The notes under the pieces are model-generated. The model searched no databases. It worked only from the letters and a program-made list of their open reading frames with translations, and had not been told where the DNA came from. 64,000 bases of DNA from Tagaea sp. GTDB taxonomy: Bacteria > Pseudomonadota > Alphaproteobacteria > CACIAM-22H2. Each line of letters begins with the position of its first letter. Positions within the stretch are counted from its first letter, which is position 1. Shown here piece by piece: positions 48,399 to 54,834 of this stretch. Position numbers and translations under genes: made by a program. The stretch is taken from NCBI GenBank assembly GCA_965279525.1, contig CBDIIB010000003.1, positions 320,001 through 384,000 of the forward strand. Reading direction: 5' to 3'.

Positions 48399-48474
48399 GC
48401 CCAGGTAGCTCAGTTGGTAGAGCATGCGATTGAAAATTGCAGTGTCGTTGGTTCGATTCCGACCCTGGGCACCA
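48399..48474 (+). tRNA. tRNA-Phe(GAA), integration site of the island
   Basis: GCCCAGGTAGCTCAGTTGGTAGAGCATGCGATT-GAA-AATTGCAGTGTCGTTGGTTCGATTCCGACCCTGGGCACCA cloverleaf. Confidence 0.96.
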
Positions 48475-49618
48475 TCTTCTTTTCAGTCTCATTGAAATCA
48501 ATGACTTGTGGGGTGGATTTGTCCCACTTTCCGTTCGCGATCTTTCGGTGGGACATTTTTTTGGTTCCAGCGGCAAGCTTTTTCATTCCGGATTTCGCCA
48601 TGGCTCGCTGATCAGCGGCCTTTGTGTAGCGATCGACTTCCTTGAGTGTTGTGTGGCCGGTAATTGCCTTGATCTCGTGCCCGGTTGCACCGAGTTCGGC
48701 GAGCCGCGCGCTCGCCGCTTTTCGAAGGCCGTGCGGACTAATGCCACCAAGCCCTGCTGCTTGAACCCATCTGCGGAAGGCGTTGCCGAAGCCATCACCG
48801 GTAAACGCACCACCGCGCGCACTTTGAAGAAAGGTCTCGCCGCCAGAGGTCGGCGTCCTTTTGATGATATGAGCCAATTCCGGAATAACAGGCAGGGTAA
48901 GTGTTACGGGCTTCTTCTTAGCGTTTTTGACCTGTGTGAAGGTAAGGCACCCATCCGCCATTTGCTGATGGCCGAGCCGGATGACATCCGACCGCCGCTG
49001 GCCCGTGTAGAGCAGAAGCGCGAGGGCCAAGCGCTGCTTTGTGCCGACAGGCCACTGTGTCTCGAACTTTCTTACTTCCTCGATCGTCCATTGCCGGAAG
49101 CCGTCAGGACTTGATGGTGGGAAGTAAGGCACCCTGCAGATGGGGTCGTCTTTGACCAGTTCGAGCGGCTTGCCGACCTTCCATACCTGGCGCAGATATT
49201 TGAGCAGGCTATTCGCTGCTGCAGGCGTATCGGCAAGGCTATCGCGGATCTGGATAACGTGCCGTTCACGCAGCATTTCAACGCGTTTGTCGCCATGTTC
49301 TTCACGGAATCGATCCAGAACTCGACGCCGTACGTTGCGGGTGCGTTCGTCGAGATGTTTGTAAGCGGCGCTGGAATAATACGCTGAGATGAGCTCGCTC
49401 ACCGACCCAGGCTTAGAGTTTTTCTGTAAAGAACTGGGCCGGGAGTCGGCGATGCGGCCTTCGATCGCTCTGCCAAAAGCCAGGTCGAAGCCCGGTGCGT
49501 CAGGTCCGAAGGGTAGTCGGATCTTGCGAGCACCCTTTCTGCGAACATACCAGCGAATGTTTCCATGTCGGTCTATATCGCGAACGAGATAGCGGTAACG
49601 GCGAACAATGCTGATCAT
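48410..49618 (-). CDS. Tyrosine recombinase/integrase
   Basis: Catalytic set R (YTGQRRSD), HxxR (HGLRK), H (TGH), Y (RYT); N-terminal arm-binding 'DRHGNIRWYVR'. Confidence 0.95.
   Translation of the reverse strand: MISIVRRYRYLVRDIDRHGNIRWYVRRKGARKIRLPFGPDAPGFDLAFGRAIEGRIADSRPSSLQKNSKPGSVSELISAYYSSAAYKHLDERTRNVRRRVLDRFREEHGDKRVEMLRERHVIQIRDSLADTPAAANSLLKYLRQVWKVGKPLELVKDDPICRVPYFPPSSPDGFRQWTIEEVRKFETQWPVGTKQRLALALLLYTGQRRSDVIRLGHQQMADGCLTFTQVKNAKKKPVTLTLPVIPELAHIIKRTPTSGGETFLQSARGGAFTGDGFGNAFRRWVQAAGLGGISPHGLRKAASARLAELGATGHEIKAITGHTTLKEVDRYTKAADQRAMAKSGMKKLAAGTKKMSHRKIANGKWDKSTPQVIDFNETEKKMVPRVGIEPTTLQFSIACSTN
48496..48555. promoter_or_regulatory. att-arm region: IHF site plus inverted arm-type repeats
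   Basis: AATCAATGACTTG (48496-48508) matches IHF consensus WATCAANNNNTTR; TGTCCCAC(48520-48527)/GTGGGACA(48548-48555). Confidence 0.65.
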
Positions 49619-49866
49619 CGCGGACCACCGAAGTCATCCCATTCGTTGCCGTCGCTGCTTGTCGCCTTTGCACGCTGTTCATCGAGCCACGCGTCGAGAT
49701 CTTCCCTGTACCAAACCTTCAGATTTCCGACGGTGGGAATGGGCTTGGGAAGCTCGCCCGCACTGACTTTAGCGTCGAAGATGCTGCGGCTCATTCCGAC
49801 ATAGAACGCGGCGAATTCCGCTCGCATCCCTCTCGGCCACCCCGGCATTGTCGATGCATCGCGCAT
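49615..49866 (-). CDS. AlpA/excisionase-like HTH protein
   Basis: 'PRGMRAEFAAFYVGMSRSIFD..V..GELPKP.......WYREDLDAW'; stop overlaps the integrase ATG (ATGA). Confidence 0.85.
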   Translation of the reverse strand: MRDASTMPGWPRGMRAEFAAFYVGMSRSIFDAKVSAGELPKPIPTVGNLKVWYREDLDAWLDEQRAKATSSDGNEWDDFGGPR

Positions 49867-50347
49867 CAGGCATCGCTCGCGTTCGAAAATCGGGACCAAT
49901 ATCCGGGGAGCGCAGCTGACATCAAGGTCGCCAGCCCGCCGCTCAGCGACGTGGAACGGTCGGAACTAAGTATCGTCTGCGGAAAGGAGGAAAATTGCAT
50001 GCCGTTGGCTCCTCCCTTCAACATGTGAAATCGATCTTGGAAAGGCAAGGAAACCGCCGGCGATCCTTCCCAACCCTTGTCGGATCGCTCGGATAGCGGA
50101 CGGACTTCCCGTGCATAACGGTGTTTCTTGCACCATGTGATTTCCCGACGGTAGGGCAAGAAAGAAAAAATGCAGATTGCCGAAGGACGCGGAGGAGGCC
50201 GCGGAACTGCGGATAGCTACGACGGTATGTGAAAATTCAAAAGCACATCGCAGGTTCGACTCATTAACTTGTGAAATCGAGTTCGAAGAAGCAAGGAACC
50301 TACGGGGCGGTCGGACTTGGGCGGGCTTCAGGAGGTTGATTGTTCGT

Positions 50348-50596
50348 CTATTTCTTTTCGACGACATTTCTCAGGCGAACGCCGGGACCAGCTTCGATAG
50401 TAGGCGGGATAAATTCAACACCAAGCGCTTCGAACAATTTCTGAAGCTTCTCGACCGTCGAAAGTCGTGGGTCCGCTTGACCGTTCTCGATCGCCGATAG
50501 GGCTCCTTTGGATATTCCGGTCCGCGCATGGATGTCGGCGAGAGTGAGGCCAACCATTGCGCGAGCGGCGCGTATTTGAGGAAGAGAGATCGTCAT
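50348..50596 (-). CDS. XRE-family HTH transcriptional regulator
   Basis: 'QIRAARAMVGLT...GIS...LSAIENG...GVEFI...GPGVRL'. Confidence 0.9.
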   Translation of the reverse strand: MTISLPQIRAARAMVGLTLADIHARTGISKGALSAIENGQADPRLSTVEKLQKLFEALGVEFIPPTIEAGPGVRLRNVVEKK

Positions 50597-50636
50597 TAGC
50601 GTCAGATACATTTTTTTCCGATAACAGACAAATTTT

Positions 50637-50660
50637 TCTTGTTTTTAGTTTTAAACAAGA
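50637..50660. promoter_or_regulatory. Candidate operator in the divergent promoter region
   Basis: TCTTGTTT-N8-AAACAAGA palindrome in the AT-rich gap between the XRE gene and the DCL gene. Confidence 0.55.
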
Positions 50661-50696
50661 TTATTATACTTGTATAGCGAACAAAGGAGCATAGAA

Positions 50697-51440
50697 ATGA
50701 ACAGTCAACCGATTACCGTCGCCGGCCATACATTTTCAGGAAAGGGGGATTTGCGGAAGACCCTCACGGCAACCTTGAAGGAACAGAGGCCTGGCGTCCC
50801 GCTGTCTCCGCCGGCTGCGGCTCTCTTCCTGGCGGTCCTCCCGTCGCATCCGGCGGCCGCTGAAAAGATCGGCCCCGGTATTCGCTCCCTTCGGGTCGAA
50901 CTGCACCCTGTATATCGAACGCCGGTCCTCCTGATCGAGCGCAATGACGGCTCCGAAACCGACGTCTCCTACATTGCTGCTATCGCCCGCATTGGGCGTC
51001 CAGCGAACGACGACGAGCCCGAGACCCCGGAGACGGGTTCCGCCGACTTCGTCCGTGCCGCGCGTGAGGCGGTCCGGCCACAGATCGAGGCGTTCCGCAG
51101 GGAAGCACAGGCCCGTGCCGCCGATCCGCAGGGGAGGGTGCACTGCGGAATCACCGGTGATCTGCTGCCGCTGTGCGCATGTGATGTCGACCACGAGTTG
51201 CCATGGGATTTCTCCTCCATCCTGGAAGCCTTCGTGCACGAGCGGCAGCTCGTGACCTCGGACGTCGAGATCCACGGCTTCGAGGACGGGGCGGCCGGAC
51301 GACGCTTTGCGGATCCGGCGATGGTCGCGGATTTCGCGGACTACCATTTCGCGCGGGCAACCTTGCGGATCGTCGAGCGAAAGCTCCACCGCCGAATAAC
51401 CGCCGAGGCCCGCCGCGGTTTGGCGCCGAAGCGCGCCTGA
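50697..51440 (+). CDS. DCL (DUF3223)-family protein with a C-terminal His-Me-finger-like region
   Basis: 'HP...EKIG.GI....V..HP.......IERNDGSETDVSY' DCL pattern; 'CGITG....CDVDH...DYH...LR'; AAGGAG RBS. Confidence 0.7.
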   Translation: MNSQPITVAGHTFSGKGDLRKTLTATLKEQRPGVPLSPPAAALFLAVLPSHPAAAEKIGPGIRSLRVELHPVYRTPVLLIERNDGSETDVSYIAAIARIGRPANDDEPETPETGSADFVRAAREAVRPQIEAFRREAQARAADPQGRVHCGITGDLLPLCACDVDHELPWDFSSILEAFVHERQLVTSDVEIHGFEDGAAGRRFADPAMVADFADYHFARATLRIVERKLHRRITAEARRGLAPKRA

Positions 51441-51615
51441 CATGCCGAGCCTCCGAACACGGCACCTGACCCGGCGGGATGTCAGGCACTCGTGCAATTC
51501 GGTAGGTGGCCGATCGATTCTGCCGATTTCGGCTCCGGTCATCGGACTGCCACCACAAAGATTCTTTCTCAAATAGCGGCGGCGAGATCTGGCTCGCCGC
51601 AGAAGGCGGCGTGCT

Positions 51616-53004
51616 GTGATCAGTCTCGACAACCTGGAAACCTTGTGGACGCGCATTCGCCCGTGGGCCCTGCGACAGGAACAGCGCCTGGAGCTCGTGG
51701 CCCAGCTCGAACTCCGCCTGGTGGACGAAAGCGTTCGAAAGCTTACCTCCGGCTGGCCGCACAGGGCGACCTTCTACTGGCTGTCTGCCGAACGAAAATT
51801 CAATCTCCGTGAATCCATGATCTGGCTCGCTCTGGCCGCGTCGGAATCGGACCTGGCCGCGAAGTTTCTGGTTACACGGCTCGTCGCACGCGCCCGAAGG
51901 GACGAGAAGAGATCTCGAAATCTGCTGCTCCGTGCCGCGTTGATTACCGAAATGAGCATGACCGTTGCCGGCATCGAGCGTGAATTCGAGCAAAACAGGA
52001 CTGACGCGGAAAATGTCGCGAGCGGCCTTGAAGAAGAAAGGAATCGTAGGCTTGAAAAAGCGCATGCAGACGGTCCTGATGTCGCCAGGGTGTCAACCGA
52101 TGGCGACGATGTCCCGGTCGAGCCTTCGATCCCGCAGTTCAAAGTTCCAGTTCTATTGGGTCGACTGACGCTGTCAGGGGACCGTGAGACCGTTTCAAAA
52201 CTGAGGGAGTACCGCAAGCTGGAGGATCCGACCGCTCGTGTCGTGGTTGATCCAGGCTGGCGTCGTCGACTCGTGGAGCCGCGTTGGTTCAAGCCTGTCA
52301 TCGATCTGGTGGACCGGCGCCTCATGGCGCTTCGGAACCGTCCTTTTCGGCTCTCGCCGCTGCTGATCGTAGGGCCGCCGGGCATCGGCAAAAGTCGATT
52401 CATCGCGGATCTCGCAAATGTTCTCGGCGTACCGCTGCTGCCGCTCTGCTTTGCAGGACAGAGCGACGCGCGGGCGCTTCTCGGCACCGCTCGCGGGTGG
52501 TCGACTGCCAACCCGACGGTGGTCGTCGACTTGATCCTGCGGCACAAGCGGGCAAACCCCATCGTCTTTATCGACGAGATTGAGAAGTCCACGGTCAGCC
52601 ACAACGGCGATCCGATCGCAGCGATCTTGACGATGCTGGAGCCCGAGACGGCGCGTAGATTCCACGATCCACTTTTGCAGGTCGAGGTCGATCTCAGCCA
52701 CGTCAGCTGGATCGCCGGTGCAAACTCGCTGAAGGGGCTACCGGCACCCTTGCTCTCGAGATTTCATGTGGTCGAAGTCGAGCGTCCGGATGGCAGAGAC
52801 TGGAGCCTGGTTCGAGAGACGCTACTGCATGAAATTGCGAGTTCGTATCAAATGCCTTTCGTCGCCCTCCCGACCCTGAACCCACTGGTCGACGACATGA
52901 TGCGCGCACTACTTGACCGACGCCGGGACCTGCGCGTTGTCCGGCGCGTGTTCGAAGAGGTGTTGGGCGTCTCTTTGGAAGAGCGCGAATTGTTGAGAAA
53001 TTAG
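51616..53004 (+). CDS. Lon-type AAA+ ATPase without a protease domain
   Basis: Walker A GPPGIGKS, Walker B VFIDEIEK, 'ANPIV', 'GDP...LTMLEPE...FHD...VDLSHV.WIAGAN', Arg finger 'LLSRF'. Confidence 0.85.
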   Translation: MISLDNLETLWTRIRPWALRQEQRLELVAQLELRLVDESVRKLTSGWPHRATFYWLSAERKFNLRESMIWLALAASESDLAAKFLVTRLVARARRDEKRSRNLLLRAALITEMSMTVAGIEREFEQNRTDAENVASGLEEERNRRLEKAHADGPDVARVSTDGDDVPVEPSIPQFKVPVLLGRLTLSGDRETVSKLREYRKLEDPTARVVVDPGWRRRLVEPRWFKPVIDLVDRRLMALRNRPFRLSPLLIVGPPGIGKSRFIADLANVLGVPLLPLCFAGQSDARALLGTARGWSTANPTVVVDLILRHKRANPIVFIDEIEKSTVSHNGDPIAAILTMLEPETARRFHDPLLQVEVDLSHVSWIAGANSLKGLPAPLLSRFHVVEVERPDGRDWSLVRETLLHEIASSYQMPFVALPTLNPLVDDMMRALLDRRRDLRVVRRVFEEVLGVSLEERELLRN

Positions 53005-53126
53005 CCAGCAACAGGGCTTGGAACGTACCCGGCGATAACTGGTGACTTTAGTTGTCTTGGCCCCGTCCCGTCGGGAATATCAGAAGCCTGTGGCCAACCG
53101 CCCGTCCCGGCGTTCGGTCTTACCTC

Positions 53127-54458
53127 TCATGGCCGAAACAGAATTCTCGGCGTTTCACTTGCCACCGACGGGACGGGCATCAAGTGCTCGGTCGGCTCCA
53201 GCGATCGAATGCGCTTCCAGATCGGGTTATCTGCGGCCATTCGGACAACATCACTTAAACCCAGTCGATCGAACGATGCTTCGAGCTTGGATACTTGCCG
53301 TTTCATTTCGACCGCAACCCAGCGCCAGATCTGAATTCCGTATTTGCCCTGCAGTGCGCTTCGGCGAGCAGCAGGGATATTCGACTTGATTGTCCACTGT
53401 CCCGGCTTCGGGAGCGGAAAGGCTTGGCTGTCCATCCACGCGTCGACACCCAACTGGATGGCTACCAGGCGTTCATTGGTTTCCCGTTCCGCTTCAGCGA
53501 TCTTGGCCTCGCGCTCGCGTAGGGCCTGCTTTTCGAGCTTGGTAGCGTGCTCGGCTGCTTCTGCCCGTTTCTTTGCTTCCGCGGCGGCTGCTTCTGCCTC
53601 TCGTGCTCTTGCGATGTGCGATTCCGCTGCCGATAGGGCGAGGTTTGCCTCCGCCAATCGTTCGTTGGTCGCCAGCTCCAACTGCCGAACGCTATCGCTG
53701 AACCTGGCGTTCTGGATGTGGGCTGCTTCAACTTCGATACGCAGGGCATCGGCCATATCAAGCTTGTAGTCCGCAGCTGCGTCACGCCCCTCGATCGCGT
53801 GTTCCCATTCCTGAATTCGGCGAAACTCCCGCGGCGGAATATGCTTCCGGTCGGATGGGATGCCGCGGAACATTCCGAAATCTTGGAAGGTTTCGTGCGC
53901 GACATCTTGGATTTCCGACCCGCGCTGTTTCAAGGTGGTTTTGGAACATCCATGCAGGGCCCTTTTTGTCGATACAGCCCGCTTCACCTTGCCCGTCTTT
54001 GTCCGCGTTTCGGTCACCGGCACGACGAAGGCAGACCCATGCATGTTTCCATTCGGTTCGTCGTGGTCAATCCGGATCGCGGCGACGCTTCCCTCGCCGA
54101 AGAGGCGTTCGACCATCTTCTTAATTCTCTCGGAGAACACGGCTTGAAGTCGGTCGCCGCCCAATTCCCATGCCTCACGTGTCCCCCAGACCAGGAGTTC
54201 AAGTCCGACTGAGGCACCTTTCCTAAATGCCGCTCGCTGCTGGCGGGCACACGCCTTCATCTGGCTGACGAGAGCGAGCGGCGGGACATGAGGATCGCAC
54301 CCCCAGACCATATTCCGTTCGGTCAGCTCCCGTGCGACGTGCCGGAGATCGCCCATAGATCTCCTGCCATGGGCAGCAAGCCGACCGGCATCTGCGAATT
54401 GTGGAATACGATCGGCTCGTGCCGAGATAATTGGTAGGTTCCGCCGCTCCATCTGCAT
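53127..54458 (-). CDS. MobV/Pre-family relaxase (variant motif III) with coiled-coil tail
   Basis: Motif I 'HGRR', 'ELL', 'DHDE....MH....VVP', 'QD....GMFRG..SDRKH....F'; GGAAAGGA RBS before ATG 54458. Confidence 0.7.
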   Translation of the reverse strand: MQMERRNLPIISARADRIPQFADAGRLAAHGRRSMGDLRHVARELTERNMVWGCDPHVPPLALVSQMKACARQQRAAFRKGASVGLELLVWGTREAWELGGDRLQAVFSERIKKMVERLFGEGSVAAIRIDHDEPNGNMHGSAFVVPVTETRTKTGKVKRAVSTKRALHGCSKTTLKQRGSEIQDVAHETFQDFGMFRGIPSDRKHIPPREFRRIQEWEHAIEGRDAAADYKLDMADALRIEVEAAHIQNARFSDSVRQLELATNERLAEANLALSAAESHIARAREAEAAAAEAKKRAEAAEHATKLEKQALREREAKIAEAERETNERLVAIQLGVDAWMDSQAFPLPKPGQWTIKSNIPAARRSALQGKYGIQIWRWVAVEMKRQVSKLEASFDRLGLSDVVRMAADNPIWKRIRSLEPTEHLMPVPSVASETPRILFRP

Positions 54459-54577
54459 TTCCTTTCCACTACGAAGATACGGAGCGTTGTCGGGAATGGG
54501 AAAAATTCGAGAACCCACTTCCCGAATATTGGCGGTATCTGAATACGCCATGCGGAGCGAGGTGGTTTCAAAAGAAG

Positions 54578-54720
54578 GCCGGGGCGCCGCAAAGGCCAGC
54601 TTGTGCCATCCAGAGGCCAGCTTGTGCCATCCAGAGGCCCGGCTTTTCTAAAAGCATAGATAGCCGGGGCGCCGCAGAGGCCAGCTTGTGCCATCCAGAG
54701 GCCCGGCTTTTCTAAAAGCA
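54578..54720. repeat. Nested direct-repeat block (3 x 21 bp inside a duplicated ~58-bp unit)
   Basis: AGGCCAGCTTGTGCCATCCAG at 54593, 54614 and 54678; AGGCCCGGCTTTTCTAAAAGCA at 54635 and 54699; GCCGGGGCGCCGCA at 54578 and 54663. Confidence 0.92.
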
Positions 54721-54834
54721 CGGAAAGCAGCTTCTCTCTGAACCAGCGAAAGTTCTCTGACTGACGCGAACTGATCTCTGCAGCACTCGAACTCTCGGAC
54801 TGTTTCCTTGGGCGTCAAATCCTGGGTGCGGCCA

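Follow-up and report, generated by a model that had tools for sequence, protein, structure and literature searches.

The stretch of DNA analysed here (the window) comprises 64,000 nucleotides of a contig assigned to Tagaea sp. (CBDIIB010000003.1, positions 320,001 to 384,000). At 50348-53004 it carries a cassette of three genes, encoding an XRE-family repressor, a HamC-like protein and a protease-less Lon-like AAA+ ATPase. The last two genes form an operon from which the XRE gene is transcribed divergently, and the whole lies between an integrase and a relaxase gene. This layout was already drawn in a preliminary description made from the sequence, and it was confirmed, the open reading frames (ORFs) being recovered at the same positions. 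The cassette genes can be regarded as real, since they have homologues and the ratio of nonsynonymous to synonymous substitution rates (dN/dS) against relatives is 0.11-0.30.

The three-gene cassette and its proteins

The features of the cassette are the following (aa, amino acids; nt, nucleotides).

50348..50611, minus strand: XRE-family helix-turn-helix (HTH) repressor, 87 aa (Pfam HTH_3, E 6.4e-11, 42.6 bits against a cut-off of 23)
50612..50696, no strand: AT-rich control region of 85 bp with two palindromes, candidate XRE operators read from the sequence
50636-50661: inverted repeat IR1, TTCTTG-N14-CAAGA(A/T), with the arms CTTGTTT/AAACAAG in the window
50665-50676: inverted repeat IR2, TATAC-TT-GTATA, a palindrome in the control region
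50697..51440, plus strand: HamC-family protein, 247 aa, with a DUF3223/DeCL N-domain and an HNH-like C-domain
50697-51011 (aa 1-105): DUF3223/DeCL domain, N-terminus of the HamC-like protein
51033-51422 (aa ~113-242): HNH-like domain, C-terminus of the HamC-like protein
51616..53004, plus strand: LonA-type AAA+ ATPase without protease, 462 aa
51634-52068 (aa 7-151): all-alpha N-domain of the AAA+ protein, no family match
aa 152-187 of the AAA+ protein: disordered linker
52177-52983 (aa ~188-456): LonA-like 3-helix bundle, AAA+ alpha/beta core and lid

By its profile matches, the first protein of the operon is a member of both the HamC family and DUF3223. The longest ORF begins at 50670 (256 aa), and the start is most likely the ATG at 50697, since this is preceded by AAAGGAG and yields 247 aa, the length of all nine database homologues. 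A DCL-like N-terminus had been proposed earlier and was supported by Pfam (DUF3223, PF11523; 45.6 bits against a cut-off of 21, residues 36-105 of the 256-aa ORF). The N-domain also matches the solved DUF3223 protein 2K0M, both in sequence (E 2.2e-13) and in fold (Z 14.3, root-mean-square deviation (rmsd) 2.3, 96 residues), as well as the C-terminal DeCL domain of the plant Pol IV/V largest subunits (E 3e-8 to 3e-7). DCL/DUF3223 had been described as best known from plants; the domain is not confined to them, and the protein is also recognised by the PADLOC HamC model PDLC00202 (E 8.7e-26, residues 63-245 on model positions 59-233 of 245). Three further PADLOC HamC models and one uncharacterised PHROG match it as well. 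Payne et al. (2021, PMC8565338) found HamC, a DUF3223 gene, beside hamAB in 379 systems, or 3.8% of Hachiman, for which they introduced the name Hachiman type II. The function of HamC is called unknown in passages of the same paper, a statement that is repeated in parts of PMC11914072 and PMC13064477.

The two-domain build is widespread, with 1354 matching clusters at E <= 1e-3 and 397 at E <= 1e-10 among 1.84 billion representatives. Only one cluster matched at E <= 1e-30, and the HamC-like clade of the window is therefore divergent. Longer forms also occur, namely P0093 (502 aa), P0072 (345 aa) and a 545-aa representative, P0063, in which four separate stretches match the HamC-like query and which perhaps carries repeated DUF3223 domains.

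Residues H51, S91, R123, C150, H166 and H217 (247-aa numbering) are invariant in a 100-member alignment, and D165, P169, F172 and R224 are nearly so. The C..TG...VDH...YH region pointed out in the preliminary description is therefore real, C150, H166 and H217 being among the invariant positions and D165 among the nearly invariant ones. The AlphaFold2 model of the protein has a mean predicted local distance difference test score (pLDDT) of 93.5. In fold comparisons the C-domain is closest to T5 SciA (9qgx; Z 6.5, rmsd 3.3, 94 residues), followed by the Gme HNH nicking enzyme (Z 4.5-4.7) and GVE2 HNH (Z 4.5) and, lower, by ZRANB3 HNH (Z 3.9), T4 endonuclease VII (Z 3.6) and McrA (Z 3.1); all of these values lie below 8, a range in which chance matches are common, which counts against the assignment. 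A viral structure library yielded full-length cyanophage look-alikes (E 1.7e-10, 3e-9 and 8.9e-7), followed by weaker matches, many of them to proteins named HNH endonuclease. The C-domain is likely, but not established, to be an HNH-like nuclease.

The second protein of the operon matches Pfam AAA over residues 249-385 (44.5 bits against a cut-off of 21.2). The NCBIfam lon model TIGR00763 matches residues 249-388 only (E 9.7e-30), with 103.7 bits against a cut-off of 608.05. When the AAA+ family was searched against the Protein Data Bank (PDB), Lon chains came first (E 1.5e-39 to 6.7e-33); the next non-Lon match was midasin (5e-24), confined to about 45 residues around the P-loop, and other AAA proteins scored 4e-10 or worse. 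On these matches the AAA+ core is specifically Lon-like over residues ~245-456. The AlphaFold2 model (mean pLDDT 71) has helices at 190-237, and LonA structures take the first five places among the fold matches of the model (Z 18.9, 18.1, 17.8, 16.6 and 14.9), with ClpA next at 14.6. One of the five, 4ypn, is a LonA fragment with the 3-helix bundle and aligns with model residues 126-390 (Z 14.9). The protein lacks a protease domain, because it stops at residue 462 after the lid helices; Pfam Lon_C found no match in it, and the Lon alignments end with the AAA+ module. A Lon-like AAA+ core without protease, as first described, was thus recovered by the TIGR00763, PDB and fold matches and by the position of the C-terminus.

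Among 23 family members the Walker A residues G253, G256, G258 and K259 and the Walker B residues D320 and E321 are invariant, as are the sensor-1 residue N370, the arginine finger R382 and R440. W295, conserved in at least 90%, aligns opposite the tyrosine of the Lon GHRRTY loop, which is the pore loop that grips the polypeptide substrate. With Walker A and B, N370, R382, R440 and the pore-loop W295 all conserved, the ATPase looks intact. The N-terminus had been described as about 200 aa of unrecognised sequence; some 60 residues of it (~180-240) in fact match the LonA 3-helix bundle, while residues 1-151 and the linker remained without a match. The LonA N-terminal domain was not recognised in the protein, and the best score of residues 1-240 in the ESM Atlas, 0.81, was at noise level. 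In a quick FastTree analysis of the AAA core, the protease-less proteins formed a single long-branch clade, separate from the 18 canonical Lon sequences included from the same class.

The divergent XRE protein is weakly similar to HipB/Y4mF-type antitoxins (TIGR03070, E 2e-7, under the cut-off) and to CapH- and RmrA-type regulators in PADLOC. From the sequence of the control region, IR1 and IR2 may serve as XRE operators; the AAAGGAG ribosome-binding site follows IR2 ahead of the ATG at 50697. Mean column identity in the control region is 89% over four loci, against about 55% for their proteins, and this is weak evidence because three of the four loci are near-identical to one another. A consensus scan of 49800-53300 found no sigma-70-like promoter, and a terminator scan of the same interval returned a single terminator-like site, below chance expectation. 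RNA hairpins in the 175-nt intergenic gap between the two operon genes (51441-51615) were not better than those of shuffled sequences (z -1.4 to -1.8), and z was +0.2 for the same gap in one relative.

Conservation, mobility and relatives of the cassette

Both operon genes are under purifying selection, with dN/dS values of 0.28-0.30 and 0.16 for the hamC-like gene and of 0.11-0.17 and 0.22 for the AAA+ gene. Within the clade of the window's HamC-like protein, an AAA+ gene lies directly downstream of the hamC-like gene and an XRE-like gene upstream of it in nine of nine loci, namely three metagenome loci, five congeneric genomes and the window itself. The metagenome loci were obtained at 55% identity by a scan with the HamC-like alignment, and the AAA+ gene is downstream in all three, being cut by the contig end in one. 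Some metagenome and genome cassette loci look near-identical. A census of 50 genomes of the window's own order placed the clade in five of the 20 other species of the genus and in none of the 29 genomes of the family's other genera. The distribution of the cassette is thus patchy within the genus, and the present genome has a single DUF3223 gene. Three further co-occurrences of HamC-like and AAA+ proteins are suggested by contigs of equal size (P0054 and P0005, 10532; P0058 and P0012, 8159; P0210 and P0010, 2869). A complex prediction from the AAA+ and HamC-like alignments scored 0.01 against a mark of 0.32, a result that weighs neither way on binding.

The cassette is modular: its homology ends at its borders, and it occurs on three different island backbones. 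By tblastx, the homology of loci L051-L053 to the window is confined to 50348-53004. The backbone of the window combines tRNA-Phe, an integrase and a MobV-like relaxase; that of L099 and L100 has tRNA-Pro, a 410-aa integrase and a MobA/MobL relaxase. The third, in L101-L103, is a low-GC mini-island of about 5.5 kb whose 561-aa gene has a weak tyrosine-recombinase match, and which consists of XRE, the pair, the 561-aa gene and three small ORFs between host genes with high GC content at third codon positions (GC3). XRE homologues in L051-L053 and L101-L103 are ~67-69% identical to that of the window. In L099 and L100 the AAA+ protein is 93-97% identical while XRE is swapped for a more distant homologue (42-47% over ~60 aa). 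We thus regard the cassette as self-contained cargo of small integrative (mobilizable) islands.

Comparison of L099 and L100 with window positions 50865-53529 gave 90-93% nucleotide identity, with an abrupt onset at 50865 inside the hamC-like gene. Divergence in these two loci is far greater for XRE and for the 5' portion of hamC, a pattern that points to a recombination mosaic. In L099 the 90-93% identity reaches the 3' end of the relaxase gene, and host genes resume after the relaxase remnant.

The other features of the island in the window are listed below.

48399..48474, plus strand: tRNA-Phe (GAA), found by ARAGORN; likely attachment site of the island
48410..49618, minus strand: tyrosine integrase, 402 aa (Pfam Phage_integrase, E 7.8e-19), its 3' end overlapping the tRNA gene
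49615..49899, minus strand: small ORF, 94 aa, possibly AlpA/excisionase-like; a weak assignment, with the role suggested by position
53127..54551, minus strand: MobV/Mob_Pre-like relaxase, 474 aa (Pfam Mob_Pre, E 5.9e-5; NCBIfam MobV, E 2.4e-6)

In the composition profile, GC content drops from about 0.67-0.70 before tRNA-Phe to 0.55-0.62 from that gene onward. Over about 65 nt (48410-48474) the integrase ORF runs antisense to the tRNA-Phe gene, and its terminal residues therefore translate the complement of the tRNA. Neither a second copy of the tRNA 3' end (attR), which would mark the far end of the island, nor a direct repeat of the tRNA was found within the 64-kb window. The 94-aa ORF has a faint PrtN/PyocinActivator match in Pfam (E 0.058, under the cut-off). 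The relaxase falls under both curated cut-offs (23.4 against 25.5 bits and 27.8 against 100 bits). It is part of the island backbone and lies outside the cassette; no match to it was found in L052, L053, L100 or L101-L103, and L099 has only a remnant of its 3' end. Just upstream of the relaxase gene, at 54590-54728, there are at least five copies of direct repeats of ~21 nt (CAGAGGCCAGCTTGTGCCATC-like) in two blocks, which could be an iteron-type site or an origin of transfer (oriT). No Rep gene had been seen in the preliminary description, and none was recognised when the island's proteins were scanned with Pfam, PADLOC, NCBIfam and PHROG.

Outside the clade, HamC-like proteins are found in several other settings. 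A match was present in 10 of 401 sampled genomes of the phylum, this genome included, and HamA and/or HamB is adjacent in five of the nine others (L078, L081, L082 with HamB fragments, L083 and L084). In L079 (G744:C42) an 812-aa SMC_N/AAA_23 ATPase with LmuB/PtuA/GajA-like matches lies directly upstream of the HamC-like gene. The remaining loci are a short contig (L080), a short fragment beside fatty-acid genes (L085) and one with unresolved gene calls (L086). On the Bradyrhizobium plasmid p195_2 (NZ_CP082163.1, L091) an 827-aa ATPase of the structural maintenance of chromosomes (SMC) type is followed by a 'DCL family protein', the two being flanked by MmeI, AbiE and SbcCD-like genes. An SMC_N/AAA_23 ATPase of 812-827 aa with a PtuA/LmuB/GajA-like N-terminus, directly followed by a full-length HamC-like protein, thus recurs in L079 and on this plasmid. 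The pair resembles a variant of Septu in which the nuclease would be of DUF3223-HNH type. A 498-aa protein without Pfam match accompanies the HamC-like protein on an Azospirillum plasmid.

The AAA+ family has four copies in this genome. Two genomes marked as unpublished, G040 and G240, were counted in one overall tally and underlie no claim made here. One paralogue (L048, G000:C5:1158000-1174000; 537 aa) adjoins a truncated comM-like gene and has a DEDDh-like gene two genes downstream. The comM-like (Mg-chelatase) gene is apparently cut at 301 aa, and there follows a low-GC3 block of a 622-aa unknown protein, the 537-aa AAA+ protein, a 217-aa unknown protein, the DEDDh-like gene and a transposase remnant, an arrangement suggestive of an island that has entered comM. 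In L008 a homologue of the 217-aa gene likewise follows an AAA+ gene. Two genes away from a second paralogue (L049, G000:C5:681000-697000; 457 aa) there is a GIY-YIG/DUF4357 gene with a match to PDC-S14, a single-gene candidate of PADLOC (E 5e-125). The third paralogue is beside an integrase and an IS481 element.

More distant members of the AAA+ family were examined at 25 chromosomal loci. Effector-type enzymes lie within two genes of the AAA+ gene in eight of these (metallophosphoesterase, patatin, PLD, SNase, HD, DEDDh-like, GIY-YIG and HAD types). Integrase, transposase or relaxase genes are near it in five, XRE-type HTH genes in three and restriction-modification (RM) genes in two. Relatives on plasmids amount to 29 records, all below 60% identity, and an HTH regulator adjoins the AAA+ gene in the three plasmid loci examined. 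In L005 and on plasmid NZ_CP035709.1 (L089) a Lon-like AAA+ protein of ~600 aa is directly followed by one or two metallophosphoesterase genes; upstream there is an HTH gene on the plasmid and type I RM methylase and specificity genes in L005. In L058 and L064 the AAA+ genes adjoin TnsA-like and Mu-type (TnsB-like) transposase genes, and in L064 an MmeI-type RM enzyme as well. These AAA+ genes are possibly carried as terminal cargo of Tn7-like elements.

Proposed function of the cassette and rival explanations

The reading that we favour, with about even confidence, is that of a nuclease module gated by the ATPase and controlled by XRE, which would serve defence, abortive infection or addiction. 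XRE would bind the palindromes of the 85-bp control region and thereby hold down expression of the hamC-like/AAA+ operon and, probably, of its own gene. By homology to Lon, the AAA+ protein would form a Lon-like ring, a hexamer, with the clade-specific alpha-helical N-domain as a sensor or docking surface. ATP hydrolysis, acting through the Lon-type pore loop with W295 in place of the Lon tyrosine, may restrain the HamC-like nuclease or, upon a trigger, release or load it, and the action of the ring may be protein-threading or DNA-translocating. The HNH-like domain would then nick or cut nucleic acid, and the DUF3223 domain would bind nucleic acid or a partner. The targets would be phages or other mobile DNA; otherwise the module may be an addiction device for the island. 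In favour of this reading are the consistent pairing of the two genes, the movement of the cassette between backbones, its patchy distribution and purifying selection, the conserved residues of catalytic type, the HNH nucleases among the best fold matches of the C-domain, and the defence-type neighbours of both families, such as HamA and HamB for HamC-like genes.

A number of observations weigh against this proposal. The defence reading amounts to guilt by association, because the AAA+ protein is not covered by any model of PADLOC v2, where its best match is BrxF (E 0.0022). As for the nuclease, no Pfam HNH model matches the HamC-like query, and in 100 family members searched at E <= 1 there were only four sporadic HNH-type matches (GH-E in two members, GmrSD_C in one and HNH_4 in one). 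The best fold matches of the C-terminal region are HNH nucleases, in agreement with the nuclease fold first suggested, but the best of them reaches only Z 6.5 and Foldseek returned nothing significant for the HamC-like model beyond 2K0M. The nine-of-nine association represents far fewer than nine independent events, since the pairing is confined to a narrow clade of one genus and its metagenome relatives. A Lon-like AAA+ protein is absent at all nine other HamC-like loci and from the annotated plasmid and phage records, and a DUF3223 neighbour was found at none of ~26 more distant AAA+ loci. The co-occurrence of the two genes that the preliminary description called for is thus complete in the nine clade loci but lacking among distant members of either family. 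The variable effectors around the AAA+ family come from a minority of loci, because most neighbours are without a Pfam match.

The cassette is also the sole non-mobility content on its three backbones, which fits equally well an island-intrinsic function. The cassette would in that case serve the island itself, with XRE as master repressor and the pair acting either on the excised circle, in replication initiation or processing, or as an anti-repressor switch. The HamC-like protein could be a nickase and the ring a DNA translocase or loader, or removal of XRE could induce excision and transfer. We consider this explanation unlikely, though it is the main rival. The cassette sits between the integrase and AlpA-like genes and the relaxase, and its pair diverges from XRE; an integrase-side, XRE-divergent layout is that of the master-repressor modules of integrative and conjugative elements (ICEs) and of elements of the Staphylococcus aureus pathogenicity island (SaPI) and phage-inducible chromosomal island (PICI) type. 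The explanation is also favoured by the mini-islands of L101-L103, where XRE, the pair, a recombinase-like gene and three small ORFs make up the whole ~5.5 kb, by the AAA+ members beside integrases (L050, L063) or TnsA/Mu-type transposases (L058, L064), and by the lack of a recognised Rep gene on the island. The best C-domain fold matches, T5 SciA and Gme HNH, are small nicking HNH enzymes, and in Sinorhizobium phage AP-16-3 the HamC-like gene lies directly upstream of a Prim-Pol/DUF3987 primase gene, a replication-type context. However, the cassette occurs on three unrelated backbones with different integrases and a MobV-like, a MobA/MobL or no relaxase, which means that it does not depend on any single oriT, relaxase or attachment site. 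HamC-like proteins elsewhere partner Hachiman or SMC-type ATPases in defence-island settings, and the AAA+ protein has a Lon-type pore loop and does not belong to a known replicative-helicase family. Integrative mobilizable elements, moreover, generally do without a replication module of their own.

It is also conceivable, and in our view rather improbable, that the cassette is a toxin-antitoxin-like addiction system that stabilises the island and has no anti-phage role, the HamC-like nuclease being the toxin and XRE and/or the AAA+ protein neutralising it. The resemblance of XRE to HipB/Y4mF-type antitoxins and to CapH- and RmrA-type regulators, weak as it is, agrees with such a role, as do the standing of the cassette as the only cargo of very small islands, its patchiness within one genus and an AAA+ relative near DarT/macro-type genes on plasmid pMARC5. 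However, known toxin-antitoxin families in Pfam, PADLOC and NCBIfam match neither large protein, and an ATP-driven motor of 462 aa would be an exceptionally expensive antitoxin. Addiction does not in any case preclude abortive infection, and the explanation thus overlaps with the nuclease-module proposal. That the two genes are mere neighbours on one young island lineage, without functional coupling, appears very improbable. All nine instances come from one genus and metagenome relatives, and more distant members of each family are not paired together, as mere neighbourhood would have it; yet adjacency has been kept at ~54% protein identity with synonymous sites saturated (dS ~2), across three backbones with homology stopping at the cassette borders, and despite the substitution of a distant XRE in L099 and L100.

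There is also a broader reading, which we put forward tentatively and are more inclined to doubt than to accept. The protease-less Lon-type AAA+ family would be the core motor of a new and widespread defence class on mobile elements, and the HamC-type DUF3223-HNH proteins would be plug-in nucleases for three unrelated motors. The AAA+ proteins could combine variable N-domains, swappable effectors (HamC-type HNH, metallophosphoesterase, DEDDh and possibly others) and HTH control, and the HamC proteins could serve HamB superfamily 2 (SF2) helicases, SMC- or ATP-binding cassette (ABC)-type ATPases and Lon-like AAA+ rings. If this were true, DUF3223/DeCL, found also at the C-terminus of plant Pol IV/V, would be a motor-docking or nucleic-acid-sensing module.

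The cassette offers a minimal setting in which to probe HamC, consisting of two genes and a repressor without HamAB, and a bacterial entry point to the DeCL domain, which also occurs in plant Pol IV/V and in DCL proteins. If the pair defends, a protease-less Lon-lineage AAA+ motor would join the NTPases that gate nucleases, and this would hint at a larger ATPase family on plasmids and islands (four copies in this genome and 29 plasmid records); such protease-less Lon-like ATPases are currently annotated just as 'AAA family ATPase'. If the pair instead serves the island, the cassette would define a new kind of module by which very small integrative elements are controlled or maintained.

Comparison with known systems

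No named system of PADLOC v2 fits the HamC-like/AAA+ pair, and no description of a HamC-like protein paired with a Lon-like AAA+ protein was found in a literature search of titles and abstract openings. The proposal of a new system is thus supported in part: as a whole the pair is probably undescribed, but the HamC half belongs to a known defence-associated family. The sole 'Lon-like' protein tied to phage defence in the literature search was BrxL of BREX. The BrxL model of PADLOC gave no match at E <= 0.1, and other BREX components were found neither among the four cassette and relaxase proteins (PADLOC) nor among six island ORFs (Pfam).

The cassette shares with Hachiman type II a HamC-family member of the same two-domain build as the HamC protein that lies beside HamA and HamB in L078. 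Where Hachiman has an SF2 helicase and a DUF1837 nuclease, the cassette has a Lon-type AAA+ protein as partner. The search for HamA (PF08878) was positive in three of three control genomes and negative in this genome (G000, 97% complete) and in two further genomes that carry the cassette (G817 and G809). For HamB, there was no match among the four cassette and relaxase proteins in PADLOC and no Pfam helicase in the six island ORFs, a genome-wide search not having been made. The cassette is not Hachiman, since HamA was not found in this genome.

In comparison with LonA protease, the AAA+ protein has the same 3-helix bundle, AAA+ alpha/beta domain and lid, together with the Walker motifs, sensor-1, arginine finger and aromatic pore loop. 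It differs in that it lacks the protease domain, forms its own clade and scores far below the equivalog cut-off of TIGR00763.

The cassette resembles Septu in its logic of two genes, an NTPase and a small, here putative, HNH nuclease, on mobile DNA (in Septu, the ABC-type ATPase PtuA and the HNH protein PtuB). However, its ATPase is a presumably ring-forming AAA+ protein of Lon lineage and not of ABC/SMC type, and its putative nuclease bears DUF3223; the PtuA and PtuB profiles of PADLOC gave no match at E <= 0.1 for either cassette protein. McrBC differs in its parts, since McrB is a GTP-using protein of another AAA+ lineage, and McrC is a PD-(D/E)xK nuclease. In concept it nevertheless resembles the module proposed here, in that an AAA+ NTPase ring bearing a recognition domain at its N-terminus would act with an endonuclease encoded as a separate subunit.

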